Positions 1 through 15,909 of a DNA stretch of 18,447 nt are shown piece after piece. The position numbers and the translations under genes are program-made. Source of the stretch: a virus (lineage: Duplodnaviria; Heunggongvirae; Uroviricota; Caudoviricetes). Position 1 is the stretch's first letter; each line of letters begins with the position of its first letter. The stretch is from the IMG/VR virus record IMGVR_UViG_2778261463_000012, positions 1-18,447 of that record; one strand, 5' to 3'. The notes under the pieces are model-generated. The model was given only the letters and a program-made list of their open reading frames with translations, did not search any database and was not told the DNA's origin.

Positions 1-20
1 CCATTTGATCATATGACAAG

Positions 21-587: not shown

Positions 588-596
588 ATATTACAT

Positions 597-875: not shown

Positions 876-1060
876 ATATTTATTTCAGAATAGTTATATC
901 ACTGGCAATTATCGCATGCATTTACGGATTACTCGTCCCGTTTCTGATATCAATGAAGGATACGGTAGCGGTAATTTCTGGCTTTGCACTGGCGTTTCTG
1001 ACCCCGCCATGCATTTATGCCATTTATAAGGGGCTTTCTTTCACTAAGGATAAAAGATGA
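872..1060 (+). CDS. small membrane protein, two predicted TM helices (62 aa)
   Basis: AGGAGG at 863-868 precedes ATG 872. Two hydrophobic stretches (IVISLAIIACIYGLLVPFLI and VISGFALAFLTPPCIYAIY). Stop overlaps the start of the SPFH gene (ATGA at 1057-1060). Confidence 0.55.
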   Translation: MNIYFRIVISLAIIACIYGLLVPFLISMKDTVAVISGFALAFLTPPCIYAIYKGLSFTKDKR

Positions 1061-1884
1061 AAAAAATTATTTTTTCTTTAGCCATTGTTCTGCCTGCCAT
1101 TGGCCTTGTCGGTTGTGATCGTGTTGAGCCTGGTAATGTGGGCATCAAAGTCAACAAACTTGGCGACGATAAAGGCGTAGGTGAAGTGGTCGGTGTTGGT
1201 CGCTACTGGACAGGCTGGAACACTGAAGTTTATATCTTCCCGACCTTTAAGCAGATGAAGACCTACGATGATCCATTCAGTTTCCAGATGAGCGATGGAA
1301 CAACCATTGGTTACCACATCGGAGTAGCCTACAAGGTTGATCCATCCAAAGTTACCACGGTGTTTCAAACCTACCGCAAAGGTGTGGATGACATTACCGA
1401 CACCGACCTGCGCCAGAAGATAGCAGATGCACTAAATCGGCTGGCCAGCAAAATGACCACTGATAAATTTATCGACGGTGGTAAATCTGAACTACTGGAT
1501 TCAGCTCTAAAAGATATTCAGGCAGAAATGACGCCCATCGGTATTCAGGTAATGAGCCTGTCTTATGTAGGTAAGCCGGAATACCCGTCAACTGTTATTG
1601 ACAGCATTAACGCTAAAGTCACGGCAAATCAGAAAACTCTTCAACGTGAGCAGGAAGTAAAACAGCGCGAAGCGGAAGCCAACATGTTGCGCGCGGAAGC
1701 TGCCGGACAGGCTGATGCGATTCGCACAAAAGCCCAGGCCGAAGCCGATGCTATTCGTTTACGCGGCGAAGCTCTGCGCCAGAACCCCGGTGTTATGGAG
1801 CTGGAAGCCATCAATAAATGGAACGGCACACTGCCGCAATACATGACCAACGGTGCCAGTACACCATTTATCCAGGTTAAATAA
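1057..1884 (+). CDS. SPFH/band-7 (prohibitin/HflC-like) family lipoprotein
   Basis: N-terminal signal peptide with lipobox (LVGC); central SPFH-like region; Ala/Glu/Arg/Gln-rich coiled-coil C-terminal segment (REQEVKQREAEANMLRAEAAGQADAIRTKAQAEADAIRLRGEAL) typical of band-7 proteins. AAGGA at 1046-1050. Confidence 0.8.
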   Translation: MKKIIFSLAIVLPAIGLVGCDRVEPGNVGIKVNKLGDDKGVGEVVGVGRYWTGWNTEVYIFPTFKQMKTYDDPFSFQMSDGTTIGYHIGVAYKVDPSKVTTVFQTYRKGVDDITDTDLRQKIADALNRLASKMTTDKFIDGGKSELLDSALKDIQAEMTPIGIQVMSLSYVGKPEYPSTVIDSINAKVTANQKTLQREQEVKQREAEANMLRAEAAGQADAIRTKAQAEADAIRLRGEALRQNPGVMELEAINKWNGTLPQYMTNGASTPFIQVK

Positions 1885-1923
1885 CTTATATGCCCGGCAA
1901 GCCGCCGGGCTAAGGGAAAGCAG

Positions 1924-2283
1924 ATGAACACTCATAATACTCAACCGAAAATAATGAACTATGACCCGAATCTGACGTCGTGCGGACGCATGGCAAAACA
2001 AACCGTTCGATTAACTTTCGGACTATGGGAATACCGCGAAACATTCGAAGTCACTGTCGGTGGCAACCTGACCGGACTCGATGTTATCAGTTGCGCTATT
2101 GAAAGCCTGTACGCAACGCTGCCTTATGAAGAAGTCGAGGATGAGCGCGATATCATAGCCACCATTAATATCGGCGGACTGGAATGCAAGGATGAAGACC
2201 TGCAGGGAGAACTCTGGCTTGCCGAGATGCTTGTATCCGCAGAAATAATCAGCATTGAGCCTGACACAGGCATACAACTCTGA
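1924..2283 (+). CDS. hypothetical acidic protein (119 aa)
   Basis: ORF co-directional with the cluster; no recognisable motif. Confidence 0.4.
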   Translation: MNTHNTQPKIMNYDPNLTSCGRMAKQTVRLTFGLWEYRETFEVTVGGNLTGLDVISCAIESLYATLPYEEVEDERDIIATINIGGLECKDEDLQGELWLAEMLVSAEIISIEPDTGIQL

Positions 2284-2313
2284 AATTCCATAAATTCAGG
2301 GAGCAATAGAAAA

Positions 2314-2556
2314 ATGTTCGCTTTGATTAATCAGGGGCAGCTATACACCGACAGTTCCGGTTACCCAATAAAAATTATTCGCTGCATAAACAGCACTGTG
2401 TTGTACAGAAGAATGGATGGGTTAACACAGTCGGTAAAAATAAACGATTTTAATGAACTGTTTGAACGGATCGATCACCAGGAATACCGACAAATTCTGG
2501 CAGAAACAGAGCAGGAAGCTCATCTGAAAAAATTACGAGCCATGAAAAGGAAGTAA
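2314..2556 (+). CDS. hypothetical protein (80 aa)
   Basis: ORF co-directional with the cluster; no recognisable motif. Confidence 0.35.
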   Translation: MFALINQGQLYTDSSGYPIKIIRCINSTVLYRRMDGLTQSVKINDFNELFERIDHQEYRQILAETEQEAHLKKLRAMKRK

Positions 2557-2712
2557 AGAATGAATAAAGCATTTGAACGATGAGTGCGCCAGCGTTATGG
2601 CAATCGCTATGACCTGACGAGAGATCTCGAAGGCTACTACTGCCGTGAAGTAGTGAAACGAATGTTTGAGGTGTGGTGTCACTGCCGCGGATAAAAGTTT
2701 TGTGAGGTAACT

Positions 2713-2928
2713 ATGTCTCTCAACATTGACTGTGTACCTATTACGACATGGTGTCGTGATATGGGAGAAACTCTGGATGCCGTTAACAAACGGTTACAAC
2801 GTGGAGTATGGGAGGAAGGGGTTCAGGTTTTAAATGTGGAAGGCTCCAAAGAACGATGGATTGATTTAACTGAGGTTTCAAAATGGGCGAGAAAAAACAA
2901 ATATCCTTATCACTCCCAAGAGGAATAA
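2713..2928 (+). CDS. putative excisionase-like small DNA-binding protein (71 aa)
   Basis: Small ORF immediately upstream of, and overlapping by 46 nt, a tyrosine integrase gene (classic xis-int arrangement). GAGGT precedes ATG 2713. Assignment is by context and size only. Confidence 0.4.
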   Translation: MSLNIDCVPITTWCRDMGETLDAVNKRLQRGVWEEGVQVLNVEGSKERWIDLTEVSKWARKNKYPYHSQEE

Positions 2929-4055
2929 CAATTCGTCAATACAAGAATTGCTCTACATTAGTTGTGACCTTCACCTATAAAGGGGTTCTTTGCAGGGAAC
3001 CCTTATCAAGGCTGGAAGTTAACGCAAAGGGGATTAAGTATGCTGAACGACTGCTCGGAGAAATAAAAAACAAAATTAGTGATGGCTCATTCGATTTTTC
3101 AGAGTACTTTCCAAACTCCAAGAAGCTTATATTATTTGGAATGGTAAAGAGGAATAAAAGTGTGAAAGATTACCTAGATGAATATTTAGAAATTTGCAAA
3201 AACAGAAAGTTATCCCCTTCAACAATAAATGGATATGAAAAATGTGTATCTGCATTATCGGAACTACATAACTTACATGTTATTGACCTGACTCCAGCAA
3301 TTTTAAAGAAATGGATTTCAAGAAGAACAACAAAACTGAAGACCATCAGAAACAATTTATCATTTTTAAGAAGCGCAGTAGATGAGGCTGTCACTGACGG
3401 ACTTATAACAATAAACCCTGTAAAACTAGTTAGTGCAAGTAGATACCATGCTGTTAACCATACAACCAATTCTGCCGAATATGAAGTAGACCCCTTTACG
3501 CCAGCAGAAGCAGCCGCTATCTACAACGCCTGTATCTATGAGGAATGGCGAAACCTTTTTTGTTTCGCATTCAATACAGGCCTTCGAAGCTCAGAATTAT
3601 GTGCATTACGTTGGTCTGATATTGATTTTATTGGTCATACCGTTCATGTACAGGTTGCTTCTGTCGTTGGTGTGATAAAAGGAACAAAAACAAAAGCTGG
3701 TACAAGAAAAGTTGAATTAAACAGTGAAGCCCTAATGGCATTACAGTCACAGAAATCATTTACGATGATGAGAAGTGCTTTTGTATTCAGTGACCCAAAG
3801 ACACGCAAACCGTGGGCTAATTCAGCAGCGATTCGTAAGAAAGCCTGGATCCCGACTCTTAAAAAAGCTGGTGTTCGTTACCGTAATCCATATCAGACCA
3901 GACATACATTCGCTACACGACATATCAGCCAGGGGGCAAATTTATTCTGGCTTGCAGGCCAAATGGGGCACAAAGGACCCGAAATGCTTTTTAGACACTA
4001 TGGTTCATATTTATCAGAATATGATGGTAATACAGCAATCTCAGAAGTAATCTAG
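2883..4055 (+). CDS. tyrosine recombinase / integrase (390 aa), AT-rich
   Basis: C-terminal catalytic region with the conserved box II pattern (RHTFATRHISQGANLFWLAGQMGHKGPEMLFRHYGSY; HxxR and terminal Tyr). Transcribed toward the ssrA-like att core at 4189-4214. Confidence 0.85.
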   Translation: MGEKKQISLSLPRGITIRQYKNCSTLVVTFTYKGVLCREPLSRLEVNAKGIKYAERLLGEIKNKISDGSFDFSEYFPNSKKLILFGMVKRNKSVKDYLDEYLEICKNRKLSPSTINGYEKCVSALSELHNLHVIDLTPAILKKWISRRTTKLKTIRNNLSFLRSAVDEAVTDGLITINPVKLVSASRYHAVNHTTNSAEYEVDPFTPAEAAAIYNACIYEEWRNLFCFAFNTGLRSSELCALRWSDIDFIGHTVHVQVASVVGVIKGTKTKAGTRKVELNSEALMALQSQKSFTMMRSAFVFSDPKTRKPWANSAAIRKKAWIPTLKKAGVRYRNPYQTRHTFATRHISQGANLFWLAGQMGHKGPEMLFRHYGSYLSEYDGNTAISEVI

Positions 4056-4188
4056 TCGCTTAAATATTTCAAAATATGTACAAAGGTAGGACACAGAATA
4101 GACCTTAACTTACACCTGAAATACATAAAAATATACAGTGAAATATGAAATCATTTGTATTTCATATTGTTATGTAATTTGGGTGTTT

Positions 4189-4214
4189 GGGTTCAACTCC
4201 CGCCAGCTCCACCA
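4189..4214 (+). other. att core: 26-nt copy of the tmRNA (ssrA) 3' end (GGGTTCAACTCCCGCCAGCTCCACCA); not a full tmRNA gene
   Basis: Exact match to the 3'-terminal 26 nt of E. coli tmRNA as I recall it, ending in CCA. The sequence upstream (4060-4188) is AT-rich and unrelated to tmRNA, so this is an attachment-site duplicate. Confidence 0.7.
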
Positions 4215-4250
4215 CTTGCTCTTCCGGATACGTCCGGAGAAATCCTGAAA

Positions 4251-4283
4251 GCCCGCATGGCACAAGCTCTGCGGGCTTTTTTG
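4251..4283 (+). terminator. rho-independent terminator (ssrA-type) downstream of att core
   Basis: Stem GCCCGCA (4251-4257) / TGCGGGC (4271-4277) followed by TTTTTT (4278-4283). Confidence 0.6.
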
Positions 4284-4326
4284 TGTCTACTGTTGTCCGA
4301 GGATATCCAGCTAAATCCAGTGATTA

Positions 4327-4378
4327 TTGGTATACGTTTAGGTATACGGTAGGATGTATACCTAAACGCGTATACCAA
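4327..4378. promoter_or_regulatory. imperfect inverted repeat of GGTATACG-containing arms immediately upstream of int; candidate Int-binding/operator site
   Basis: Left arm TTGGTATACGTTTAGGTATACG (4327-4348) and right arm GTATACCTAAACGCGTATACCAA (4356-4378) are near-perfect reverse complements. A single copy of the arm recurs at 12578-12599 near the other end of the element. Confidence 0.4.
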
Positions 4379-4398
4379 TTCATGAAGGAGCGGCCAAA

Positions 4399-5598
4399 TT
4401 GGCAAGAACGACACGCCCCCTGACCAACACAGAAGTACTGCGCGCTAAAGCGTTAGAAAAGGATCTAACGTTGCATGATGGCGATGGTCTTTTTCTACTC
4501 GTTAAAACGAACGGTAAGAAGTTATGGCGTTTCCGTTATCAACGTCCGGCAACAAAGCAGCGGACAATGATGGGGCTAGGTACCTTCCCAGCTCTTTCAC
4601 TTGCTGACGCCCGACGGTTAAGAGCGGATTACCTTTCCTTGTTAGCCAACGGAATTGACCCGCAAATTCAAGCTGAAATTGCAGAGGAACAGCAGCAAAT
4701 CGCACAGGACAGTATTTTTACAACGGTCGCCGCTAACTGGTTCCAGCTTAAAAGCAAAAGCGTAACCCCTGATTACGCAAGAGACATTTGGCGCTCATTG
4801 GAGAAAGATGTATTCCCTGCCGTTGGTGAACTCCCAGTTCAGCAAATCAAAGCCCGAACGTTGGTTGAAGCGCTTGAGCCAGTCAAAGCTCGTGGGGCGC
4901 TAGAGACTGTACGTCGGCTAGTGCAACGCATTAACGAGATAATGATCTTTGCCGTAAATACAGGGCTGATCGATGCCAATCCAGCTTCCGGGGTTGGAAT
5001 GGCCTTTGAGAAGCCAAAAAAGCAAAACATGCCAACACTACGACCAGAAGAACTACCAAATCTAATGCGTTCTTTAGCCATGTCTAATTTATCTGTATCG
5101 ACTCGCTGCCTTATCGAATGGCAGCTTCTAACACTTGTACGCCCTTCTGAAGCCTCTGGTACTCAATGGGCAGAGATCGATCTTGAGAATAAACTCTGGA
5201 CGATCCCTGCAGGACGAATGAAAGCCAAGCGAGAACATATTGTTCCTCTGTCGGTTCGAGCATTAGATATTTTAGAGATAATGAAGCCTATTAGTGCACA
5301 TCGTGAATATGTTTTCCCAAGTAGAAATAATCCTAAGCAACCAATGAATAGTCAGACAGCTAATGCTGCATTAAAAAGAATTGGTTATGGAGGAAAGCTT
5401 GTTGCACATGGTTTGCGTTCTATAGCCAGTACAGCTATGAATGAGGAAGGTTTTAATCCCGATGTTATTGAAGCAGCATTAGCGCATAGCGATAAAAATG
5501 AAGTCCGTAAAGCATATAATCGTTCGACTTACCTTTATCAACGAATTGATTTAATGAATTGGTGGGCTAACTTCGTGTTTAAAAAAACACACGAATAG
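4399..5598 (+). CDS. int: P4-type tyrosine integrase (399 aa, TTG start)
   Basis: AAGGAG at 4385-4390 then TTG 4399. N-terminus MARTTRPLTNTEVLRAKA...DGDGLFLLV and C-terminal HGLRSIASTAMNEEGF...ALAHSDKNEVRKAYNRSTY match the P4/CP4-57 integrase architecture. Sits directly downstream of the ssrA 3'-end att core. Confidence 0.9.
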   Translation: MARTTRPLTNTEVLRAKALEKDLTLHDGDGLFLLVKTNGKKLWRFRYQRPATKQRTMMGLGTFPALSLADARRLRADYLSLLANGIDPQIQAEIAEEQQQIAQDSIFTTVAANWFQLKSKSVTPDYARDIWRSLEKDVFPAVGELPVQQIKARTLVEALEPVKARGALETVRRLVQRINEIMIFAVNTGLIDANPASGVGMAFEKPKKQNMPTLRPEELPNLMRSLAMSNLSVSTRCLIEWQLLTLVRPSEASGTQWAEIDLENKLWTIPAGRMKAKREHIVPLSVRALDILEIMKPISAHREYVFPSRNNPKQPMNSQTANAALKRIGYGGKLVAHGLRSIASTAMNEEGFNPDVIEAALAHSDKNEVRKAYNRSTYLYQRIDLMNWWANFVFKKTHE

Positions 5599-5611
5599 CC
5601 CACATAAAATA

Positions 5612-5634
5612 AGAGGCTGCTCAATGCAGCCATT
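5612..5634. terminator. probable bidirectional terminator between convergent int and cargo operon
   Basis: Hairpin GGCTGC (5615-5620) / GCAGCC (5626-5631), flanked by A-rich sequence upstream and T-rich downstream on the + strand. Confidence 0.4.
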
Positions 5635-6379
5635 ATTTCAATGAATTAATATACGTATTTAATCCTGTTGATTTTATAACTCCCATCACTTCTGGTGATT
5701 TTTTCAAATAAACAACATTAGGCCATGACAGATAAGCAATAATAATACATATTAGTCGAACCATTGCAAAATCAGACAGATTAATGAGAGTTTCAATATA
5801 CATATGTTTATCTTGCTCATCGAAACCATTTTCAGTTATAACTTCATTATCAACAAGTTTAACTGCAAGATAAAACCTTCTTGCAAATGAAAACATCTTA
5901 TCATCAGATTTATCATCTAATGATTCAATTATTTTAATCAAAGCATCTTCAGCAATACCTCTTTGAATACTGGTTTTAATCAGTTGCTCAAGTTTATTTA
6001 CAGCATTAACCTTTTTAACTTCAAAATCACCACTTGGAGATGGAAAAATCAAAGAGAAATCATCAAAAGCACTTTTTTGCGCGTTAATTAAATTATAAAA
6101 TTGAAATTCAAATGACTTCCTTTTATCAAGAAACTCCTGTCTTTTAGTCTCATTAATTAAACATTCATTCGCAGTTAATTGCATTTTAACTGATTTAATT
6201 AGAAGTAATATTGAAATGAAACTCAATATAGGATTAAGAACACCTCCAAAATAATCACCAAACTGTCCCCATATCTCTTTGTTTTCAGAAAGAGTGGTTG
6301 AGCTTCCACCAAATTGATAATAGTATAATCCAAAGACTACTAATATCAAAATAGATGTAACCCAACCTATATACCTCAT
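5633..6379 (-). CDS. membrane-anchored protein of unknown function (248 aa); downstream gene of the two-gene cargo operon
   Basis: Two N-terminal hydrophobic helices (IGWVTSILILVVFGLYYY and VLNPILSFISILLLIKSV) flank a Gly/aromatic-rich motif (WGQFGDYFGG); charged, probably helical C-terminal domain. Start overlaps the stop of the upstream gene (ATGA). GAGGTGG RBS. AT-rich. Confidence 0.65.
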   Translation of the reverse strand: MRYIGWVTSILILVVFGLYYYQFGGSSTTLSENKEIWGQFGDYFGGVLNPILSFISILLLIKSVKMQLTANECLINETKRQEFLDKRKSFEFQFYNLINAQKSAFDDFSLIFPSPSGDFEVKKVNAVNKLEQLIKTSIQRGIAEDALIKIIESLDDKSDDKMFSFARRFYLAVKLVDNEVITENGFDEQDKHMYIETLINLSDFAMVRLICIIIAYLSWPNVVYLKKSPEVMGVIKSTGLNTYINSLK

Positions 6380-7197
6380 ACCCCATCCACCTCAATAATT
6401 AAGTATTTCACTACCTCACCATTACTGATGGTTAAATCTCTAACTTTTAATAACAAATACTCTCGCTCTTCTTCTGCCAGTCTATTGTTAGCATCTAGAT
6501 TACTCGTTATTTTCTTGGTCTGGGCATCAGTAACGTATTTTAGACCATTCAAAAAACCAAAAGAAGTCGTTTTTTCTTCCCCCCTGACTAACAGTCTACC
6601 ATTTCCAGTAAAAGTATTAAACCTAGTAACTATAGCTTCTATCTGATGATCATGATTAGTTTCAATTAGCTCAGTTATATTCAAAGCGGTATTTTTGTTT
6701 AAAGTAATTATCTTTTGCTTCTCACCCGGCTTTCTATAATTCAAATCAACTGAATAGTTGCACATGGTGGAAATTTTATGCATATTTTTAAGTCTATTTC
6801 GAATAGCTTTAGTCAACTCATCTTCAATATCGTCTAATCCGGAAACCACTTTTTTTGCAGCGTCACTCAATGCCGGACCTTCTAAAAAAAGAGACTCATA
6901 AATATAATAACTCATAACTTCTGCAAATACAGTGCGAGTCATACTTGAAAGACGCGCTGCAACTTTTCTATCTGATATAACAACATCAAATCGCTGACCA
7001 AAAGAGCCTGTAAAAGAATGCTTAAGGTTTGTTCTTATTTCATTAGATTGATGTCTGTTTTCTTTAACTTTACCTCGAAGTATTGCCTCTGTAATAATAC
7101 TGGTAACTCCAGATGCACCCAATAGTGTCTGGAGAGCATAATCCATATCTATTTCATCGTCGCCGCTATTGATAACCAAATCAAGACTAACTTTCAT
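6376..7197 (-). CDS. protein of unknown function (about 273 aa); upstream gene of the two-gene cargo operon
   Basis: ORF track gives 6376-7245, but GGGGAAA precedes the ATG at 7197 (MKVSLDLV...), which I prefer as the start. Soluble; no Walker or other catalytic motif I can assign. AT-rich, unlike the P4 backbone. Confidence 0.6.
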   Translation of the reverse strand: MKVSLDLVINSGDDEIDMDYALQTLLGASGVTSIITEAILRGKVKENRHQSNEIRTNLKHSFTGSFGQRFDVVISDRKVAARLSSMTRTVFAEVMSYYIYESLFLEGPALSDAAKKVVSGLDDIEDELTKAIRNRLKNMHKISTMCNYSVDLNYRKPGEKQKIITLNKNTALNITELIETNHDHQIEAIVTRFNTFTGNGRLLVRGEEKTTSFGFLNGLKYVTDAQTKKITSNLDANNRLAEEEREYLLLKVRDLTISNGEVVKYLIIEVDGV

Positions 7198-7333
7198 TAT
7201 TTCCCCACGAATTGATAAAAATCTGCTCAATGAATAAAAGTCCATATTTTTATACAGTAATCAAACTTCCAATGTCTAAAATATGCAAACACATTAAACT
7301 AAATTTATGATAGTGATCAACATATTGCGCGCA

Positions 7334-7352
7334 GTGCTTTCCCCGCCTCGCC
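7334..7352 (-). other. P2/P4-type cos site (19-nt cohesive-end sequence)
   Basis: + strand reads GTGCTTTCCCCGCCTCGCC, the reverse complement of the P2/P4 cohesive end GGCGAGGCGGGGAAAGCAC as I recall it. Located just beyond the 3' end of psu, as in P4. Confidence 0.65.
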
Positions 7353-7455
7353 CGCCCGCTTTGTGGGGCGGTTTTAATGCAGTTGTACTGACACGCTCAG
7401 ACTGCGCCGGGAATGGCGCGGTCTGCAGAAAATGAGGCAGGGAAACGCATGCAAA

Positions 7456-7486
7456 GCCATGCACCTTATCGATGCATGGCTTTTTT
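7456..7486 (+). terminator. rho-independent terminator-like hairpin between cos and psu
   Basis: Stem GCCATGCA (7456-7463) / TGCATGGC (7473-7480), loop of 9 nt, then TTTTTT (7481-7486). The reverse strand has only a short T-run. Confidence 0.45.
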
Positions 7487-7516
7487 CAGTAAAAACGGGC
7501 GGATTTTCGGGGAATT

Positions 7517-8089
7517 TTACACAGACTGACGTGATGCCAGTTGCGCACTTTTACGCGAAAAAATCATGTTCTGCGCAGGGGTGAATTTTTCACGGCTGTC
7601 ATCCACCGAAGCCGCGTCAGGCCTGAATCCGATGGTCGTTAAAATGTCGCTATCCTGTGCGGAATAATTAATTTTTTCCCCCTTCGCAAGCCAGGACAGA
7701 AGGGCTTCACGCAGGGCATCTGTGGCACGCTGTATGGCACAGTTTCGGGCAATGGCCGTCAGCTCACTGTAGCCCATCAGCTCCGGTGCCAGTGCGGCCG
7801 CCAGTGCTGTGCCGTGCTGCTGCATAAAATCATTCAGCCGGTCGCGGATGCTGATGTGCTGAACGGCTTCATGCGAACGAATATAACGACCGGCAGCCTG
7901 ATTCACCTGCCATTTTCTGACTTCGATAATATTGCGTAATTCGTCCAGGCGACTGACGTTTCTGCCTTCCCCGGACAGAAGCCGCAGATATTCCTGTTCG
8001 GCCGCAGCCAGCTCATTTTTGCGTTGCAGCCATGCTGCTTTGTTATTCTGACAGGTGTCAAAGGCCTGCTGTAAGGCTGTGCTTTCCAT
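7517..8089 (-). CDS. psu: Psu, polarity suppression / capsid decoration protein (190 aa)
   Basis: 190-aa protein (MESTALQQAFDTCQNNKAAWLQRKNELAAAEQEY...) of P4 Psu length and sequence character, in the conserved position after delta in the sid-delta-psu block and adjacent to cos. Confidence 0.85.
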   Translation of the reverse strand: MESTALQQAFDTCQNNKAAWLQRKNELAAAEQEYLRLLSGEGRNVSRLDELRNIIEVRKWQVNQAAGRYIRSHEAVQHISIRDRLNDFMQQHGTALAAALAPELMGYSELTAIARNCAIQRATDALREALLSWLAKGEKINYSAQDSDILTTIGFRPDAASVDDSREKFTPAQNMIFSRKSAQLASRQSV

Positions 8090-8162
8090 CGTTATCTCTT
8101 TCTCATCATGCTGAAGAATAAAAATACGGTGTGCGGCGACGGCCGGTGTTAACCGGCAGCCC

Positions 8163-8663
8163 TCATTCCAGACGCAGCGAATATGATTGTGTTTTTAAGC
8201 GTACTGGCGGCAGTTCCTGTTTTTCATGCAGGCTTTCTGCCAGTTCGTCCGGCGTGACCGGGCGGACAATAAAACGGTTGATGGTCTGAAGCGTTTTAAA
8301 CACCAGACCACATCCCGGATCCGTGCACACATAAAAACGCTCGGTGACTTCCTGAGACAGACGCCGCGATGTTCTTGACAGTGCAAGGCCTTTACATCTC
8401 CGACAACAATATCCGGTAACAAGCATTCTTTTCGGGCGTTTCATACTGCCGGAGGCTGACGTCAGTGAATCGCGGTATCTCTGTTTGCCTGAAATGTATT
8501 CCATTCCTGAATCTTTACTGTCAGAGAAAAAGCTTTCACTCGCTTCAAATGTCGCAGAGCAATAAATATTCCGGCACTGTGCAATCATTATCTTGGTGCC
8601 ATCGTCCATGAAATGTGCGCGGCGGGTGTGAGCAACATGTCCACACGACGGGCAGTAAATCAT
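8163..8663 (-). CDS. delta: Delta, Ogr/Delta-family zinc-finger late transcriptional activator (166 aa from MIYCPSCGH)
   Basis: Ogr-like zinc-finger motifs (CPSCGH...QCRNIYCSATF, and a second CCRRC...CTDPGCG half), consistent with the duplicated-Ogr architecture of P4 Delta. The ORF track starts at 8720; I prefer the internal ATG at 8661-8663, giving 166 aa. Confidence 0.8.
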   Translation of the reverse strand: MIYCPSCGHVAHTRRAHFMDDGTKIMIAQCRNIYCSATFEASESFFSDSKDSGMEYISGKQRYRDSLTSASGSMKRPKRMLVTGYCCRRCKGLALSRTSRRLSQEVTERFYVCTDPGCGLVFKTLQTINRFIVRPVTPDELAESLHEKQELPPVRLKTQSYSLRLE

Positions 8664-8956
8664 GACAGCAGTCCTCTGGCCTTCAGCTCTGCTCCCTGCT
8701 GGTCTATTTTGTCCTGCCACACCTTGCGCTGTGCCGGTGTGCCTGCCACCTCATAATCCATGTGCGGGAGTGTTGCCGCTGACAGTCCGGCCAGCCGGAG
8801 AACCGGCTCGCCGCTGAGGCTGATTTGTATCTGTTTAATTTTCTGTTCCAGCGATGATTTCACCTGCTGCATGACAGCCTTTTCCGGTGCGACGTAGCCC
8901 TGATGGCCGGTGGTGTTGGCGAGCGGATTTTCCTGTACCAGAATGCTCAGATGCAT
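8660..8956 (-). pseudogene. sid: sid-like ORF, probably 5'-truncated (98 aa from its only ATG; frame open without a start up to a stop at 9116-9118)
   Basis: Occupies the position of sid directly upstream of and overlapping delta. My translation of the upstream frame finds no ATG/GTG/TTG before the stop at 9116-9118, so at most about 152 codons remain, against 244 aa for P4 Sid. Identity rests on position, not motif. Confidence 0.4.
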
Positions 8957-9489
8957 TGCCCGGACAAGCGCCTCACAGGTTTCATTCAGGGCGTGTTCCA
9001 GCTCATGCTCTGCATACAGACTCAGCAGGTGATGATGTGCCTTCCGGTATCCTTGTGCGTATCCTCGCTGACGGGCGCACCACAGACATCCCGCTGGGGC
9101 GTTTTCTGCGGGAATTTACCTGTGACCGTCCTGACCTGTTCAAACGCAGCCCCGTAAACCGGCATGCGGTACTGAAAGAAATGGCCGGAGACCCGGAATT
9201 ACAGAAATGGCGGGAGAAATATCTGGATATTTACCCGCAGGAGCCTGTTCCGGTCAGCCGGGAAGCACCGGTGGCGCGGGAATGGCGGGAAATTCCCCGC
9301 ACGGAGCCTGACCCGGAAATCACACCGGATAACAGTTACCGCAATTATCTGTAATTAAAAAACGACACCCGAAAAATTAAATGTGCGTATTCGCGCAGGG
9401 ATACGCACGTCTTCAGGAGACGCAGATATGCCTTATCAGTTAATGCAACCGGCACGGAATTCAGTCATCTGTCACAGGGAGGAAAGCAA

Positions 9490-9810
9490 ATGAAAACACC
9501 CTTACCGCCCGTCTTACGCGCTGCCCTTTACCGTCGCGCTGTCGCCTGTGCCTGGCTGACCGTGTGCGAACGTCAGCACCGCTACCCGCATCTCACCCTT
9601 GAGTCACTGGAGGCGGCCATCGCCGCTGAGCTGGAAGGCTTTTATCTGCGCCAGCACGGTGAGGAAAAAGGGCGTCAGATAGCCTGTGCCCTGCTGGAAG
9701 ATTTAATGGAATCCGGCCCCCTGAAGGCCGCGCCGTCGCTGTCCTTTCTCGGGCTGGTTGTGATGGATGAACTCTGTGCCCGTCACATAAAAGCGCCGGT
9801 ACTGCACTGA
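9490..9810 (+). CDS. small conserved protein upstream of alpha (106 aa)
   Basis: GGAGG at 9479-9483 precedes ATG 9490. GC-rich codon usage like the P4 backbone; ends 15 nt before the alpha start. In P4 a small ORF occupies the equivalent position; exact identity not verified. Confidence 0.55.
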
Positions 9811-9824
9811 AGGAGAACAACACC

Positions 9825-12158
9825 ATGAAAATGAACGTAACCGCCACCGTCAGCCATGCGCTCGGCCACTGGCCGCGTATTCTCCCGGCGCTGGGGATTC
9901 AGGTGCTGAAGAACCGTCATCAGCCCTGTCCGGTCTGTGGCGGGAGTGACCGCTTCCGTTTTGATGACAGGGAGGGGCGCGGCACCTGGTACTGCAATCA
10001 GTGTGGTGCCGGTGACGGCCTGAAACTGGTTGAAAAGGTGTTTGGTGTCTCCCCGTCCGACGCGGCCGCAAAAGTGGCTGCCGTGACCGGCAGCCTGCCC
10101 CCGGCTGACCCGGCAGTGACGGCTGCCGCCGGTGCTGAAACAGACGCTGCCCGGAAGAACGCAGCCGCACTGGCACAAACCCTGATGGCGAAAACCTGTC
10201 CCGGAACCGGTAACGCCTACCTGACCCGCAAGGGCTTTCCCGGCCGGGAATGCCGGATGCTGACCGGCACACACAGAGCCGGTGGCGTGAGCTGGCGCGC
10301 CGGTGACCTTGTGGTGCCACTGTATGACGACAGCGGCGAACTGGTTAACCTTCAGTTAATCAGTGCTGACGGCCGTAAGCGCACTCTGAAAGGCGGACAG
10401 GTCAGGGGCACCTGTCACACCTTTGAAGGACAGAATCAGGCCGGAAAACGTCTGTGGATAGCGGAGGGATACGCGACCGCACTTACCGTGCATCACCTGA
10501 CCGGTGAAACGGTGATGGTGGCGCTTTCTTCCGTGAACCTCCTTTCTCTGGCCAGCCTTGCCCGGCAGAAGTATCCGGCCTGTCAGATTGTCCTTGCCGC
10601 AGACCGTGACCTCAGCGGTGACGGCCAGACAAAAGCCGCCGCAGCCGCAGATGCGTGTGAGGGCGTTGTTGCCCTGCCGCCGGTCTTCGGTGACTGGAAT
10701 GATGCCTTCACGCAGTACGGCGGGGAGGCCACCCGTAAGGCCATTTACGATGCCATCCGGCCACCGGCTGAAAGCCCGTTCGACACCATGAGCGAAGCGG
10801 AGTTTTCCGCCATGAGTACCAGCGAAAAGGCCATGCGTATCTATGAGCATTACGGCGAGGCGCTCGCGGTCGATGCCAACGGCCAGCTTCTGTCCCGCTA
10901 TGAAAATGGTGTCTGGAAGGTGCTGCCGCCACAGGACTTTGCCCGGGATGTGGCCGGGCTGTTTCAGCGTCTGCGCGCGCCGTTCTCCTCCGGGAAGGTG
11001 GCCTCCGTGGTGGACACCCTGAAGCTGATTATTCCGCAGCAGGAAGCCCCCTCCCGCCGCCTGATTGGCTTTCGTAACGGCGTGCTCGACACGCAGAACG
11101 GCACGTTCCACCCGCACAGTCCGTCACACTGGATGCGCACCCTGTGCGATGTGGATTTCACCCCGCCGGTGGACGGTGAAACGCTGGAGACCCACGCCCC
11201 CGCGTTCTGGCGCTGGCTTGACCGTGCCGCCGGTGGCCGTGCGGAAAAACGCGACGTGATTCTGGCCGCACTGTTTATGGTGCTGGCGAACCGCTACGAC
11301 TGGCAGCTCTTTCTGGAGGTGACCGGTCCCGGCGGCAGCGGCAAAAGTATCATGGCCGAAATAGCCACCCTGCTGGCCGGGGAGGATAACGCCACGTCGG
11401 CCACCATCGAGACGCTGGAATCCCCGCGTGAACGTGCCGCGTTAACTGGCTTCTCACTGATACGCCTGCCGGACCAGGAAAAATGGAGCGGCGACGGTGC
11501 CGGACTCAAGGCCATCACCGGCGGCGATGCGGTGTCCGTGGACCCGAAATACCGGGATGCGTACTCCACGCATATCCCGGCGGTGATTCTGGCCGTGAAC
11601 AATAACCCGATGCGCTTCACCGACCGCAGCGGCGGCGTGTCACGCCGGCGGGTGATTATTCACTTCCCGGAACAGATAGCCCCGCAGGAGCGCGACCCGC
11701 AGCTTAAGGACAAAATCACCCGCGAGCTGGCGGTCATCGTGCGTCACCTGATGCAGAAGTTCAGCGACCCGATGCTCGCCCGGTCACTGCTTCAGTCCCA
11801 GCAGAACTCAGACGAGGCACTGAACATCAAACGGGATGCCGACCCGACGTTTGATTTTATCGGCTATCTGGAAACCCTGCCGCAGACCAGCGGCATGTAT
11901 ATGGGGAACGCCAGTATCATCCCGCGCAATTACCGTAAATACCTCTATCACGCCTATCTGGCCTACATGGAGGCAAACGGCTACCGGAATGTACTCAGCC
12001 TGAAAATGTTCGGGCTGGGGCTGCCGGTGATGCTGAAGGAATACGGACTGAATTACGAGAAGCGCCATACCAAACAGGGGATACAGACCAACCTGACGCT
12101 GAAAGAGGAAAGCTACGGCGACTGGCTGCCAAAATGTGACGACCCTGCAACAACCTGA
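9825..12158 (+). CDS. alpha: P4 alpha-type primase-helicase (777 aa)
   Basis: N-terminal zinc-binding motif (CPVCGGSDRFRF...WYCNQCGAGDG), a TOPRIM-like primase region (LWIAEGYATALT...VLAADRDLSGDGQ) and a Walker A box (TGPGGSGKS) of a C-terminal helicase domain. Length equals that of P4 alpha; followed by terminator and crr repeats. Confidence 0.9.
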   Translation: MKMNVTATVSHALGHWPRILPALGIQVLKNRHQPCPVCGGSDRFRFDDREGRGTWYCNQCGAGDGLKLVEKVFGVSPSDAAAKVAAVTGSLPPADPAVTAAAGAETDAARKNAAALAQTLMAKTCPGTGNAYLTRKGFPGRECRMLTGTHRAGGVSWRAGDLVVPLYDDSGELVNLQLISADGRKRTLKGGQVRGTCHTFEGQNQAGKRLWIAEGYATALTVHHLTGETVMVALSSVNLLSLASLARQKYPACQIVLAADRDLSGDGQTKAAAAADACEGVVALPPVFGDWNDAFTQYGGEATRKAIYDAIRPPAESPFDTMSEAEFSAMSTSEKAMRIYEHYGEALAVDANGQLLSRYENGVWKVLPPQDFARDVAGLFQRLRAPFSSGKVASVVDTLKLIIPQQEAPSRRLIGFRNGVLDTQNGTFHPHSPSHWMRTLCDVDFTPPVDGETLETHAPAFWRWLDRAAGGRAEKRDVILAALFMVLANRYDWQLFLEVTGPGGSGKSIMAEIATLLAGEDNATSATIETLESPRERAALTGFSLIRLPDQEKWSGDGAGLKAITGGDAVSVDPKYRDAYSTHIPAVILAVNNNPMRFTDRSGGVSRRRVIIHFPEQIAPQERDPQLKDKITRELAVIVRHLMQKFSDPMLARSLLQSQQNSDEALNIKRDADPTFDFIGYLETLPQTSGMYMGNASIIPRNYRKYLYHAYLAYMEANGYRNVLSLKMFGLGLPVMLKEYGLNYEKRHTKQGIQTNLTLKEESYGDWLPKCDDPATT

Positions 12159-12174
12159 CCATCATGACTCATCT

Positions 12175-12199
12175 GACCGGCATCTGCCGGTCTTTTTTT
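12175..12199 (+). terminator. rho-independent terminator of alpha
   Basis: Stem GACCGG (12175-12180) / CCGGTC (12187-12192) followed by TTTTTTT (12193-12199). Confidence 0.6.
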
Positions 12200-12216
12200 A
12201 TCCCTGAATTCCCCGA

Positions 12217-12515
12217 AGGTGAACAATCCACTGTTCACCCTTCACCGTATATTCACCCGTTATCACACTGAAATTAAAAGAGAAAAACGAAAGGTGAACA
12301 GTGTGAACAATCAAATCAAAAAAAACTTTTTTTCTCCCTGTGTGATTTCAGTACGGGGGATTAATCACCGGTATGAGTCACACCGGCAGAATGCCGGAGG
12401 TGAAGAATCGAATGTTCACCCTTCACCCATTATTCACCACCTATCACTCTGAAATAAAAGGAGAAAATCAAAGAGTGAACAGTGTGAACAGTTCTTTCGA
12501 AAAAAAATTTTTTTC
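12217..12515. repeat. crr-like region: two direct repeats of about 120 bp about 60 bp apart, carrying TGTTCACC/GGTGAACA iterons
   Basis: Unit 1 about 12217-12335 and unit 2 about 12398-12515 align almost base for base (e.g. ATGTTCACCCTTCACC... and ...GTGAACAGTGTGAACA... followed by A-run/T-run). This matches the P4 crr organisation and the alpha-binding octamer TGTTCACC. Confidence 0.7.
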
Positions 12516-12577
12516 CTGTACGATATAGCATCAATCCAAGTAAAAATGCGCTTTCATTTCACATTAACTTACAGCCA

Positions 12578-12599
12578 TTGGTATACGATTAGGTATACG
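12578..12599. promoter_or_regulatory. single copy of the GGTATACG-containing arm repeat (candidate Int arm-type site) near the right end of the P4-like element
   Basis: TTGGTATACGATTAGGTATACG differs by one base from the left arm at 4327-4348. Confidence 0.35.
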
Positions 12600-12652
12600 C
12601 ACAAAAACTGAATTAAACAAAATCGTTAAAAATCAAAGCGATACAATATTTA

Positions 12653-12674
12653 TTCAAACTCCGCCAGCCCACCA
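12653..12674 (+). other. degenerate second copy of the tmRNA 3'-end att core (TTCAAACTCCGCCAGCCCACCA)
   Basis: Related to 4192-4214 with a few substitutions/indels, ending in CCA, followed by the same type of terminator and by a second P4-type integrase gene. Confidence 0.55.
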
Positions 12675-12710
12675 ATTTTTGATATATTGAAGTTCAGTGA
12701 AGTCTATCAA

Positions 12711-12742
12711 GCCCGCATGGAACCAGCCTTGCGGGCTTTTTT
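12711..12742 (+). terminator. rho-independent terminator (ssrA-type) after second att core
   Basis: Stem GCCCGCA (12711-12717) / TGCGGGC (12730-12736) followed by TTTTTT (12737-12742); near-identical to the stem at 4251-4277. Confidence 0.55.
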
Positions 12743-12840
12743 ACGTCTATAGTAGTCTACCGAGAATTGCTAGAATCTACTCGTTATGGCACCCTTTTTG
12801 GGACCCAACACAAAGGGTCCAAAACATGAGGGTCCCAAAC

Positions 12841-14070
12841 ATGGCAAAAATCGCTAAGAAGCTCACTGACACTGAAATCAAAAGCACCAAACCTGCCGAG
12901 AAAGAGGTTAACCTTTTTGACGGCGATGGTTTGCTCCTGCGAATCGCCCCCTTAGCGAAGGGAGGAAAGAAAAATTGGTATTTCAGATATGCAGTGCCTG
13001 TGACCAAAAAGCGAACTAAGGTGAGCTTAGGAACCTATCCTCACCTTACACTTGCGAAGGCACGAGCTTTACGTGATGAGTACTTGTCGTTGCTTGCAAA
13101 TGGTATAGACCCACAAGTTCATAACACCCACAAAGCCAATGCCCTTAAGGATGCAACGGAACATACATTTCAAGCAGTAGCCAAGAAGTGGCTTGATGAG
13201 AAAGTCAAAACGTCAGGCATCTCCCAGGATCATGCTAACGACATCTGGCGAAGCCTAGAGAGAAATATCTTTCCAACGTTGGGTGATACCCCCATTAAGG
13301 AGATTCGCCCTAAAATGCTTAAACAGCATTTAGACCCCATAGAAAAACGAGGTGTCCTTGAAACACTTCGCCGCGTCATATCCCGCCTGAATGAAATTTT
13401 CCGCTATGCAGCAACAGAAGAACTCATAGAATTCAATCCGGCTGACAACCTGGGGCAACGGTTCAGCAAGCCAAAAAAACAGAATATGCCAGCATTACCC
13501 CCTTCCGAACTCCCCCGCTTCCTGGTTGCTCTAAACAATGCTTCTATCCGTTTAGAAACAAGGCTACTGATTGAGTGGCAACTTCTCACATGGGTTCGCC
13601 CTGGTGAAGCTGTTCGCACAAGATGGTCAGATATTGATATAGAAACCAGCATGTGGAACATCCCGGCGGAGTTTATGAAAATGAAGAAGCCTCACAAAGT
13701 TCCACTGAGCAAAGAATCTTTGCGAGTCTTGGATTCAATGAAAGCCATCAGCGGGCATAGAGAGTGGGTTTTTCCCAGTATCAAAGCTCCACTCAATCAC
13801 ATGCATGAACAAACAGCTAATGCGGCTATAATCCGTATGGGCTTCGGAGGTGAGCTTGTAGCTCATGGTATGCGATCAATCGCTAGAACGGCGGCTGAGG
13901 AGTGTGGCAAGTTTAGAACTGATGTCTTAGAAGCCGCCCTTGCCCACTCGAAAAAAGATGAAATAATTGCAGCCTACAATCGTGCAGAGTATCTCACAGA
14001 ACGTGTGGTTCTCATGCAATGGTGGAGTGACTATGTTTCGTCTCAAAAATACAAAGTTATTGCCGCATAA
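12841..14070 (+). CDS. int: P4-type tyrosine integrase, second copy (409 aa from MAKIAKKL)
   Basis: The ORF is open from 12697, but the N-terminus MAKIAKKLTDTEIKSTKPAEKEVNLFDGDGLLLRI aligns with the start of the integrase at 4399, and GAGGG precedes ATG 12841. C-terminal catalytic region HGMRSIARTAAEE...ALAHSKKDEIIAAYNRAEY. Paralog of the 4399-5598 integrase, clearly diverged. Confidence 0.85.
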   Translation: MAKIAKKLTDTEIKSTKPAEKEVNLFDGDGLLLRIAPLAKGGKKNWYFRYAVPVTKKRTKVSLGTYPHLTLAKARALRDEYLSLLANGIDPQVHNTHKANALKDATEHTFQAVAKKWLDEKVKTSGISQDHANDIWRSLERNIFPTLGDTPIKEIRPKMLKQHLDPIEKRGVLETLRRVISRLNEIFRYAATEELIEFNPADNLGQRFSKPKKQNMPALPPSELPRFLVALNNASIRLETRLLIEWQLLTWVRPGEAVRTRWSDIDIETSMWNIPAEFMKMKKPHKVPLSKESLRVLDSMKAISGHREWVFPSIKAPLNHMHEQTANAAIIRMGFGGELVAHGMRSIARTAAEECGKFRTDVLEAALAHSKKDEIIAAYNRAEYLTERVVLMQWWSDYVSSQKYKVIAA

Positions 14071-14352
14071 CTCTTCCATGATGGGTTAACTATCTTGATT
14101 TATTTGAAGAATTAATGATCACACCATTAACCTATGTGGACTAAGCATAGCCATTTACAAATGGGTACCTTGAGGCCACATAACGAAAGCTGTCGGTCAT
14201 ATCAGCTAAATAATTCACATCTCTTCTCGATTATCATACACCTCGAAGAACTACCAAATTCGCTCTAATCAATGATAAAACAGTTGAATTCGGTTAAAAT
14301 TTGATCAATTTTATCCTCTACATTGTATTGAATCATCCATGAGGTTTTGTGC

Positions 14353-15909
14353 ATGGCTAGCGGAAATGAAAAAAATCATAGAGTTAGGGTCGCACAGTAC
14401 TTGAGGATGTCTACCGACCATCAGCAATATTCTTTACATAATCAGTCTGAATATATCAAAGATTATGCTGAAAAGAACAATATGGAAATCGCTTATACCT
14501 ACGATGATGCAGGTAAGAGCGGAGTCAGTATCGTAGGCAGGCATTCTTTGCAGCAGTTACTTAGCGATGTAGAACAAAAGAAAATAGATATACAGGCTGT
14601 ATTATTTTATGATGTGAGCCGTTTTGGTCGTTTTCAAAATAGTGATGAAGCTGCATATTATTCCTTTCTATTTGAAAGAAATGGTGTAGATCTTATATAT
14701 TGTTCCGAACCTATACCCACTAAAGATTTCCCTTTAGAGTCCTCTGTTATACTGAATATAAAAAGATCAAGTGCTGCATATCACAGCAGGAATCTATCTG
14801 AAAAGGTATTTATAGGGCAAGTAAATTTAATAAAGCTTGGTTATCATCAAGGCGGTATGGCTGGTTATGGGCTGAGACGTCTTTTAGTAGACGAAAATGG
14901 CATAGCTAAAGAAATATTGAATTTCCGCAAAAGAAAGAGTATTCAAACAGATAGGGTAATATTAATTCCGGGACCAAAAAATGAAATAAAAATTGTAAAT
15001 AGAATCTATGATCTCTTTATAGATAGTAACGTCCCAGAATTCATTATTGCTGAGAGATTAAATGAACAGAGCATACCTGCAGAAAATGGAACATCATGGA
15101 CTCGTGCAAAAATACATCAAATTTTGACAAATGAAAAATATATTGGAAACAACATATATAACAAAACCTCATCTAAACTAAAAAGTAAGCTTGTAAAAAA
15201 CCCCAAACATGAATGGATTAGATGTGACAAGGCATATAAACCAATTATTTCAAAGAAAAAATATAATAAAGCTCAAGAAATAATTCAGCTCCGATCCATT
15301 CATTTGACTAATGAAGATCTATTAGAAAAGCTAAAAGAAAAATTAGAATCTAATGGAAAACTATCAGGCTTTATCATTGATGAAGATGATACAGGCCCTT
15401 CATCTTCTGTTTATAGAACCCGATTTGGTGGTCTTTTAAGAGCATATACTTTGATTGGTTATAAGCCAGAACATGATTACAGCTATCTCCAAATAAATGA
15501 AGCACTAAGATCATTTTACTCAGAGATAATTGAGGATTTTAAGGGCGAAATATTAAAAAGTAACTGTCATATAGACGAGTATAAATATTACCCAATGCTT
15601 TACATCAATGATGAGTTTTTAATTTCCGTCCTTGTTACTAAATGCATACATATGAAATCAGGTAAACTTAGATGGAAAGTCCGGTTTGATAACTCACAGA
15701 AAGCAGACATAACAATTGTTATACGAATGAATTCACAAAATATTTCACCTCTTGATTTTTATATCATACCAAAGATTGAAAACGAATATAGTAAAATGTG
15801 TATGATGGAAACAAACAACATTCGGTTAGATCTCTATAGATTTGATAATCTTGATAAATTTCTACAAATTATTACTCGCATGAAAGTGAGGGAACTATAT
15901 GCTGCCTGA
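14353..15909 (+). CDS. large serine recombinase (about 518 aa)
   Basis: N-terminal resolvase-type catalytic domain (VAQYLRMSTDHQ with the presumptive catalytic Ser; YDDAGKSG; DVSRFGR) and a recombinase domain (GYGLRR...SWTRAKIHQILTNEKYIGN), then a long C-terminal extension. GAGG at 14341-14344 precedes ATG 14353 (ORF track starts at TTG 14347). Very AT-rich. Confidence 0.8.
   Translation: MASGNEKNHRVRVAQYLRMSTDHQQYSLHNQSEYIKDYAEKNNMEIAYTYDDAGKSGVSIVGRHSLQQLLSDVEQKKIDIQAVLFYDVSRFGRFQNSDEAAYYSFLFERNGVDLIYCSEPIPTKDFPLESSVILNIKRSSAAYHSRNLSEKVFIGQVNLIKLGYHQGGMAGYGLRRLLVDENGIAKEILNFRKRKSIQTDRVILIPGPKNEIKIVNRIYDLFIDSNVPEFIIAERLNEQSIPAENGTSWTRAKIHQILTNEKYIGNNIYNKTSSKLKSKLVKNPKHEWIRCDKAYKPIISKKKYNKAQEIIQLRSIHLTNEDLLEKLKEKLESNGKLSGFIIDEDDTGPSSSVYRTRFGGLLRAYTLIGYKPEHDYSYLQINEALRSFYSEIIEDFKGEILKSNCHIDEYKYYPMLYINDEFLISVLVTKCIHMKSGKLRWKVRFDNSQKADITIVIRMNSQNISPLDFYIIPKIENEYSKMCMMETNNIRLDLYRFDNLDKFLQIITRMKVRELYAA

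Follow-up and report, generated by a model that had tools for sequence, protein, structure and literature searches.

An 18.4-kb stretch of Escherichia coli DNA, very probably part of an array of three integrative elements in tandem at the tmRNA gene

Introduction

Tandem arrays of integrative elements at tRNA genes and at the transfer-messenger RNA (tmRNA) gene have been catalogued by Islander and TIGER, and they share a common plan: an intact target gene stands at one end, each unit brings its own integrase and is accompanied by a displaced 3' fragment of the target, and the units are modular and diverse. Among 3919 islands, Islander lists 125 tandems of at least two elements and 4 of at least three, with the tmRNA gene as the most enriched target (PMC4383910). 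The general mechanism by which tyrosine integrases insert repeatedly at such genes has been set out (PMC4383910, PMC7192596), and tandem arrays at tmRNA genes have already been described, to go by the citation in PMC7192596 of Williams 2003, "Traffic at the tmRNA gene". Here we analyse 18,447 nucleotides (nt) of E. coli DNA (IMG/VR record IMGVR_UViG_2778261463_000012; hereafter the window) from the variable region 3' of ssrA, the tmRNA gene. We are highly confident that the window is the ssrA-distal part of a tandem array of three integrative elements at the 3' end of ssrA. Its units, in head-to-tail order, are an arm of a phiP27-like lambdoid prophage (unit 1), a damaged P4-type satellite (unit 2) and a CP4-57-like island (unit 3), each with its own integrase.

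Each unit has a well-described counterpart. The closest relatives of the units 2 and 3 integration modules are those of CP4-57 in E. coli K-12 (intA, alpA, psaA) and CP4So in Shewanella oneidensis, which share with them the integrase family (NF007246; 49-61% identity), the target, the supply of an ssrA trailer and terminator by the element, and an imperfect core at the right attachment site (attR) without the same T as in the window. The cargo differs; alpA is not seen in the part of unit 3 that lies in the window, and unit 2 is without an alpA/vis homologue. Satellite phage P4, which targets a leucine tRNA gene, supplies the backbone of unit 2, and phiP27-like lambdoid prophages that sit at ssrA have the same order of excisionase, integrase and attachment site (att) as unit 1. 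P4-like satellites often exchange their integrases (PMC8628076), the interval between psu and int is a known variable hotspot in them (PMC9122126), and ssrA is a listed integration site of Shiga toxin (Stx) phages (PMC8065619).

Displaced ssrA ends and integrases

No tmRNA or tRNA gene was found in the window by ARAGORN (0 genes), and the Rfam tmRNA model (RF00023) reached 11 bits there, against a gathering score of 47, by its 3' end only, in a match that finishes at 4214. The window does hold two fragments of the gene, which we call core 1 and core 2 and which are not tmRNA genes (Table 1). Core 1, GGGTTCAACTCCCGCCAGCTCCACCA, agrees at all 26 positions with the 26-nt 3' end of E. coli ssrA, and exactly these 26 nt, with a mismatch on either side, form the direct repeat between the left attachment site (attL) and attR of an ssrA prophage in the genome FHI_NMBU_11. 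Core 2 reads TTCAAACTCCGCCAGCCCACCA, which by comparison with the ssrA end has one extra A, one C gone and one T gone. By our estimate, the chance of a 15-nt match with at most one edit in a search space of 2 x 18.4 kb is about 0.004, and core 2 sits exactly at the boundary of units 2 and 3 that comparative genomics sets. Both cores are on the plus strand and a strong hairpin follows each: a stem at 4248-4279 with a T-run to 4282 (-22.6 kcal/mol), and one at 12709-12738 with a T-run to 12742 (-19.4 kcal/mol), each with z = -4.5 against shuffles. Aligned over 66 nt, the two stretches of core plus terminator agree at 74% and are homologous. An earlier interpretation made from the letters alone (the sequence-only reading) had placed a tmRNA 3'-end-like core and a terminator beside the integrases and had said that it would fall if the cores proved unrelated to tmRNA; the perfect ssrA end at core 1 shows that they are not.

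The same reading had called three tyrosine integrases, and we found them as called. Pfam Phage_integrase is present in all three open reading frames (ORFs), which contain no internal stop and whose ends equal the coding sequences called by RefSeq in relatives. The first, int1, is AT-rich as had been noted (GC 0.35 at 3001-3500), joins Arm-DNA-bind_2, SAM-like and Phage_integrase domains, and is 93% identical in amino acid sequence to the integrase of the 47-kb ssrA prophage of FHI_NMBU_11; core 1 begins 134 nt 3' of its stop codon. The ORF just upstream had been taken for an excisionase in a lambda-like layout. It has no Pfam or NCBIfam match; it does match PHROG 2917, "excisionase" (E = 1.3e-35), is 97% identical to the RefSeq-annotated excisionase of FHI_NMBU_11, and overlaps the start of int1 at 2883-2928. 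An excisionase gene upstream of and overlapping the integrase gene, an arm-binding N-terminal domain and transcription of both genes towards att are what a lambda-type integration module is expected to show.

Int2 and Int3 have the P4/IntA architecture (Arm-DNA-bind_3 plus Phage_int_M), both pass the 434-bit cut-off of NCBIfam NF007246, the CP4-57 IntA family, and both genes read away from their cores, as had been proposed. They are 50% identical to each other, and their relationship to Int1 is at fold level only. Int2 is 100% identical to a protein of E3, 61% to K-12 IntA and 35% to P4 Int, whereas Int3 is 100% identical to a protein of YZ22PE165 and 49% to K-12 IntA. Both of these 100% matches are to RefSeq proteins.

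Occurrence of the units in complete genomes

For comparison we used 5426 complete E. coli genomes, and these contain simpler states of the locus with the same boundaries. The empty site, in which ssrA is followed by the flank on the ypjA side, is present in 2528 of the 5426; its junction is GCCAGCTCCACCA/ATCATGATTGG (here and below the slash stands at the end of ssrA or of its copy). Where ssrA is followed directly by unit 3, the junction is CCACCA/ATTTTTGATAT (that is, CCACCA/ATTTTTG), sequenced in SH19PTE6 and identical to the window from 12669 onward. At least 80% of a query from the int3 region is covered in 1186 genomes, and most of the matches listed start at window position 12653 and overlap an annotated ssrA. 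Unit 2 followed by unit 3 stands next to ssrA in E3, in YZ22PE165 and in at least a dozen more genomes. Their similarity to the window begins at 4189, with ssrA itself supplying the core; the junction of ssrA and unit 2 is CCACCA/CTTGCTC, E3 is 99.96% identical to the window over 4189-9049, and the unit 2 similarity in relatives ends at 12669-12676. Finally, ssrA, prophage and unit 3 follow one another in E94 and FHI_NMBU_11, and ssrA, prophage and unit 2 in cq9 and U90.

In all of these variants the junction sequences are identical to those of the window. Because simpler states with the same junctions occur in E. coli genomes, the units are modular and were separately acquired, and successive site-specific insertion at the ssrA 3' end, as the sequence-only reading suggested, is the best explanation of the array, with direct support from these natural variants. 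That reading also expected an intact ssrA upstream. The gene lies outside the window; it heads the homologous arrays of E3, YZ22PE165, cq9 and FHI_NMBU_11, and in the last two it stands at the far end of the homologous prophage, 43 kb and 47 kb away, respectively. By the measures used in Islander, each unit has its own intact tyrosine integrase, and a target fragment in the orientation of the gene is present for unit 1 (core 1) and, imperfectly, for unit 2 (core 2), that of unit 3 being beyond the window. Directly observed, then, are the layout of the sequence, the limits of the units and their occurrence as modules in other genomes.

Table 1. Features of the window, with regions of comparison loci (L numbers) discussed in the text
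Feature	Position (nt)	Strand	Evidence and remarks
IS10 outer end	1..77	+	left window edge; interrupts a unit 1 gene; RNA-OUT 3' half, multi-copy segment
Unit 1, right (int-proximal) arm of phiP27/Stx-phage-like lambdoid prophage	78..4188	+	phiP27 identity, synteny
xis (excisionase), unit 1	2713..2928	+	PHROG 2917; likeness to RefSeq excisionase
int1, lambda-style tyrosine integrase	2883..4055	+	Pfam; transcribed towards core 1
Unit 1 att, P-arm side	4056..4188		AT-rich, nested inverted repeats I1, I5, I7; conserved in FHI_NMBU_11 attR
Core 1, displaced perfect ssrA 3' end	4189..4214	+	attR core of unit 1, attL core of unit 2
P' arm, unit 2	4215..4398	+	replacement ssrA trailer, terminator, four GGTATAC arm-type repeats (4329-4376)
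int2, IntA/P4-type integrase, unit 2	4399..5598	+	Pfam; NF007246, 594.4 bits
Two cargo genes, psu-int hotspot	5633..7245	-	GC 0.30-0.34, overlapping, 248 and 289 amino acids
P4 backbone, unit 2	7325..12515	-	98% identity to P4 X51522 (7325-12513); Psu, Ogr_Delta and primase domains (Pfam)
Joined cos	7352/7353		P4 backbone
psu	7517-8089		P4 backbone
delta	8163-8663		P4 backbone
sid 3' remnant	8660-9047		P4 backbone
Deletion junction	9047-9049		P4 7748-9927 gone
orf106	9490-9810	+	P4 backbone
alpha	9825-12158	+	P4 backbone
crr repeats, two of 120 nt	12213-12515		P4 backbone
P arm, unit 2	12516..12652	+	two GGTATAC arm-type repeats (12580-12598)
Core 2, imperfect ssrA 3' end	12653..12674	+	attR core of unit 2, attL core of unit 3
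P' arm, unit 3	12675..12840	+	own ssrA trailer, terminator, GGGTCC-type repeats at 12792-12844
int3, IntA/P4-type integrase, unit 3	12841..14070	+	Pfam; NF007246, 445.1 bits
Unit 3 cargo	14347..18241	+	Pfam; island continues past window
Large serine recombinase, 520 amino acids	14347-15909	+	Pfam
Two overlapping ParB/RepB-like genes	15899-17688	+	Pfam
IS2 left end	18242..18447	+	right window edge; inserted in unit 3; matches annotated IS2 in L006 and L003
Stub variants at unit-2-type right junctions	L002 32888-32910; L012, L013 ~1654-1680; L014 ~1653-1675		compared with window 12653-12674
Native flank against prophage left end	L008 22987-23150; L004 23348-23520, L010 26050-26215		L008 compared with L004 and L010
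Further ssrA-end-like sequence	L001 30672-30740; L008 ~28457-28530; L002 37056-37130		between pinH remnant and ypjC, well beyond ypjA

Anatomy of the three units

Unit 2 (4215 to ~12668) is satellite phage P4 with a replaced, ssrA-specific int/att module and a 2.18-kb internal deletion. The likeness to P4 extends over cos, psu, delta, the 3' part of sid, part of orf151, orf106, alpha and crr. Measured against the published component list of P4-like satellites (int, psu, delta, sid, alpA, epsilon, alpha; PMC8628076), the unit has int, psu, delta and alpha in P4 order together with cos and crr, sid is truncated, and the alpA/vis homologue (ORF88) and epsilon are deleted; unit 2 is thus a defective member of the family. 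The deleted segment (P4 7748-9927), which is present in P4, E3, cq9 and YZ22PE165, held the 5' third of sid, ori, ORF88, cI, epsilon and the start of orf151, and its loss leaves a fused ORF at 8887-9354. ORF88 is the Vis/AlpA-type factor that P4 requires for excision. Because ori, cI, epsilon and this factor are gone, this copy of unit 2 is probably unable to replicate, or to excise unaided, and so probably immobile on its own.

The similarity to P4 stops exactly at the outer edge of crr, at 12513, and an IntA-type att region and integrase lie beyond it. The motif GGTATAC occurs 8 times in the window against 1.24 expected, and 6 of the 8 lie in the two arms of unit 2 (12580-12598 and 4329-4376). 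The attP of the unit, that is, the attachment site of the free element, would accordingly read crr, two GGTATAC, imperfect core, replacement terminator, four GGTATAC and int, which is the layout annotated in P4 (crr, two arm repeats, core, more arm repeats, int). The sequence from 4215 to 4398 is identical to that after the intact ssrA of E3 and YZ22PE165. In the psu-int hotspot, the gop/beta/cII genes of P4 are replaced by two cargo genes for which NCBIfam, Pfam and PADLOC gave no confident family, the weak PADLOC match being to PDC-S25 (E = 1.2e-5). Other systems occupy the position in cq9 and YZ22PE165, and by position the two genes are candidates for an uncharacterised anti-phage cassette.

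The int-proximal 4.1 kb of unit 1 is all of that prophage that lies inside the window. Positions 81-2710 are 90.5% identical to phage phiP27, the arm is syntenic with the ssrA prophages of cq9, E94 and FHI_NMBU_11, and it encodes SPFH, DUF5406 and DUF4222 genes. The phiP27 similarity ends at 2710, three bases short of the xis start, which makes the xis-int module a different cassette from that of phiP27. On sequence grounds, the unit 1 cassette of xis, int and att for ssrA therefore appears to have been swapped in as a module, in parallel to the swap in unit 2 at 12513. The homologous ssrA prophage of cq9 is 43 kb long and carries stx2e; no stx gene is present in the window.

Unit 3 begins with a P' arm (12675-12840) identical to the sequence after the intact ssrA in SH19PTE6. 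A 15-nt tandem repeat pair at 12814-12843 overlaps the start of int3. GGGWCCC is not enriched across the window (2 sites against ~1 expected), and the proposed arm sites of this unit therefore rest on the local 15-nt tandem and inverted repeats. The serine recombinase straight after int3 is a second recombinase, of another class, in the same island. Searches of the unit 3 cargo with NCBIfam, Pfam and PADLOC gave further matches that were weak only. The cargo region is 97-99.9% identical to E94 and YZ22PE165; the YZ22PE165 island is 99.9% identical to unit 3 and runs for ~14.7 kb to the ypjA-side flank, beside which it ends in a GCCAGCC stub.

Both edges of the window are insertion sequence (IS) copies. 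At the left edge the 3' half of the Rfam RNA-OUT model matches 1-31 (33.5 bits), and a terminal sequence, ...ggggattcatcag, which we take to be the end of IS10, finishes at 77. This segment is multi-copy, on chromosomes and plasmids, and the similarity to the prophages of relatives begins just past it, at 81. The IS10 interrupts a 582-nt prophage gene, and with the IS2 at the other edge the window looks like a short-read contig broken at repeated IS copies, both of which interrupt units of the array. Damage is thus seen in each unit: IS10 interrupts unit 1, IS2 interrupts unit 3, and unit 2 carries its deletion.

Two observations concern the native surroundings of ssrA. In empty-site genomes, the flank after ssrA aligns with the left end (P' side) of ssrA lambdoid prophages, with a global alignment score of 24.5 against a shuffle mean of -6.6 (standard deviation 5.2), so that even the empty site may have a phage-derived trailer and terminator. 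There is also another, degenerate sequence that resembles the ssrA end (TTCAGTCACTGCCAGCCCACCA; in cq9 ...CCGCCAGCTCAACAA). It has a terminator hairpin of its own and the look of an earlier outer limit of the ssrA island region.

Proposed strand exchange at the shared gene end

The structure is the one that repeated insertion by tyrosine integrases at a tRNA-type gene is known to yield. On this mechanism, the attP of each unit would carry a copy of the ssrA 3' end followed by a trailer and terminator of its own, and the tyrosine integrase would exchange strands inside the shared ssrA-end segment. Integration would rebuild a working ssrA from element DNA and push the previous 3' end downstream, where it would become the boundary with the next unit. 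In unit 2, a module of the IntA(CP4-57) type, directed to ssrA, would have taken the place of the P4 int/att module at the crr boundary, and the left half of core 2 would be the element-borne P half-site, never used to rebuild ssrA.

The junctions of unit 2 allow the position of its exchange to be narrowed. The target junction reads ...GCCAGC T CCACCA/ATTTTTG, the attL reads ...GCCAGC T CCACCA/CTTGCTC, and the attR reads ...TTCAAACTCC-GCCAGC - CCACCA/ATTTTTG. We infer that strands were exchanged in the last 13 nt of ssrA or fewer and, by parsimony (with no later mutation), within CCACCA. If the exchange fell between the absent T and the first base after CCA, then the imperfect left half of core 2 belongs to the element. 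For unit 1 the exchange can be anywhere in the 26-nt identity block; integrases of this kind at tRNA-type genes usually exchange near the 5' edge of the block, which for unit 1 is in the T-arm. The view that the elements used one and the same att site thus holds for the gene end; it does not hold for the site in the strict sense, the exact 26-bp block of unit 1 being set against an exchange within the last 13 nt or fewer for unit 2. Lambdoid and P4-type units would, on this comparison, share a gene end and use different recombination cores.

The stub that follows GCCAGC at unit-2-type right junctions varies among genomes, being CCACCA, CCA, CA or C, always without the T. This variation in length falls exactly in the presumed strand-exchange segment.

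Alternative explanations

The sequence-only reading described the second core as more degenerate than the first, which the three single-base indels bear out, and implied that core 2 was once a perfect duplicate of the ssrA end that later decayed by mutation. Displaced fragments of this kind are not under selection, and the small length variants in relatives indicate that mutations do occur there; we nevertheless consider decay improbable. The annotated attR of CP4-57 in K-12 (psaA) reads TTCAGACTCC-GCCAGC-CCACCA/ATCATGATTGG, with indels as in core 2, although the integrase of that element is only 61% identical. In 8 genomes, the right ends of the unit 2 type stand next to four different right flanks and all read TTCAAACTCCGCCAGC without the T, with the same three indels, whereas the matching junctions of ssrA with these flanks, and the empty site, are perfect and all carry the T. 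Core 1, likewise displaced, is perfect too. The imperfection of core 2 would thus reflect its origin in the element and not decay. We also asked whether the core-like sequences might not be att sites at all, either resembling ssrA by chance or belonging to an IsrM-like gene for a small RNA, since the IsrM model (Rfam RF02763) matches in part at both segments. The scores are 28.6 bits at 4158-4282 and 35.7 bits at 12555-12742 against a gathering score of 376, and only the ends of the model align, that is, the core-like segment and the terminator. With core 1 identical to ssrA and both segments falling on element boundaries in dozens of genomes, the boundary mapping refutes this explanation, to which we give practically no credence. 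As a separate observation, the alignment suggests that IsrM has as its 3' part the att segment of a Salmonella island, made up of an ssrA end and a terminator.

The remaining alternatives concern how the units came together. Core 1 is bordered on its right by the P' arm of unit 2 and core 2 by that of unit 3, and genomes in which ssrA is followed by unit 3, or by units 2 and 3, are abundant, so that the most parsimonious order of arrival is unit 3, then unit 2, then unit 1. Unit 2 might instead have integrated after unit 1, into the core regenerated at the right end of the prophage: a newcomer can insert at either of the regenerated cores (PMC7192596), the whole segment that Int2 would need on the B side is contained in the 26-nt core 1, and the final structure would be identical. 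We hold this to be unlikely, because the many genomes with ssrA, unit 2 and unit 3 and no prophage, up to 99.96% identical to the window, make the prophage most simply the latest addition. Import of the array in blocks, for example of units 2 and 3 together, by homologous recombination through ssrA and flanking core genes after transduction or conjugation, is a more serious prospect, although we still favour the other side. Recombination is frequent in E. coli, and the block of units 2 and 3 shares 97-99.96% identity with blocks from many isolates of poultry and pig origin. Such import changes only where the integrations happened and not how the structure arose, and the junctions would still be exact products of site-specific exchange.

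Discussion

We read the window, then, as the ssrA-distal part of a three-unit array built by successive site-specific insertions, and several points weigh against that reading or limit it. The intact ssrA is outside the window, whose left side ends in IS10, and the linkage of the array to ssrA in this genome is taken from relatives; the right end of unit 3, with its ssrA fragment, is likewise beyond the window. No complete E. coli genome among those compared covers at least 80% of the window at one place, and the exact triple was not found there. The positions of exchange, the order of arrival and any present-day activity are what we infer from comparing sequences, and, because either regenerated core may serve an incoming element (PMC7192596), the order of units 1 and 2 is not provable. 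With regard to the exchange in unit 2, excision of CP4So from the Shewanella ssrA deletes the same T, the U of a G.U wobble pair (PMC5148205), which implies that in that system the T is within the exchanged segment or to the right of it. Parsimony and the CP4So result would be reconciled if the T were inside the overlap region.

These considerations lead us to a tentative proposal, which we think has a small chance of being right: that the imperfect, T-less P half is a conserved functional feature of ssrA-targeting IntA-type elements, that the T lies in the overlap, and that a prophage in front shields ssrA. By our own reading of the acceptor stem, the absent T encodes the U of the G3.U wobble pair, the identity element for alanyl-tRNA synthetase. 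If the T does lie in the overlap, every integration or excision would produce a one-base heteroduplex, possibly resolving to a dead ssrA as in Shewanella CP4So, and the stub variants of E. coli would be accounted for. If the proposal is true, the working ssrA would be shielded by a lambdoid prophage that stands ahead of the other units and has a perfect 26-bp core, and IntA-type exchange would be limited to displaced copies.

The structure is of an already known kind, and there is no new type of element or mechanism in it. The locus follows the common plan of tandem arrays at tRNA and tmRNA genes with no difference in kind; only this combination of three units was not found in one piece in the 5426 complete genomes. 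What the window offers is a clean, fully resolvable example of mobile DNA collecting at the tmRNA gene, where three integration modules, unrelated or distantly related, have come to target the same gene end, and where the phiP27-like and P4 backbones both appear to have gained access to ssrA through an exchange of integration modules.

From a practical perspective, the analysis shows a way to delimit units in draft assemblies that are broken at IS copies, and an imperfect att core need not mean an old insertion. The position of IntA-type exchange relative to the identity U of tmRNA decides whether excision can switch ssrA off. It is here that the wider interest lies, in that the conserved T-less half-core and the junction length variants bear on the inactivation of ssrA by IntA-type excision.

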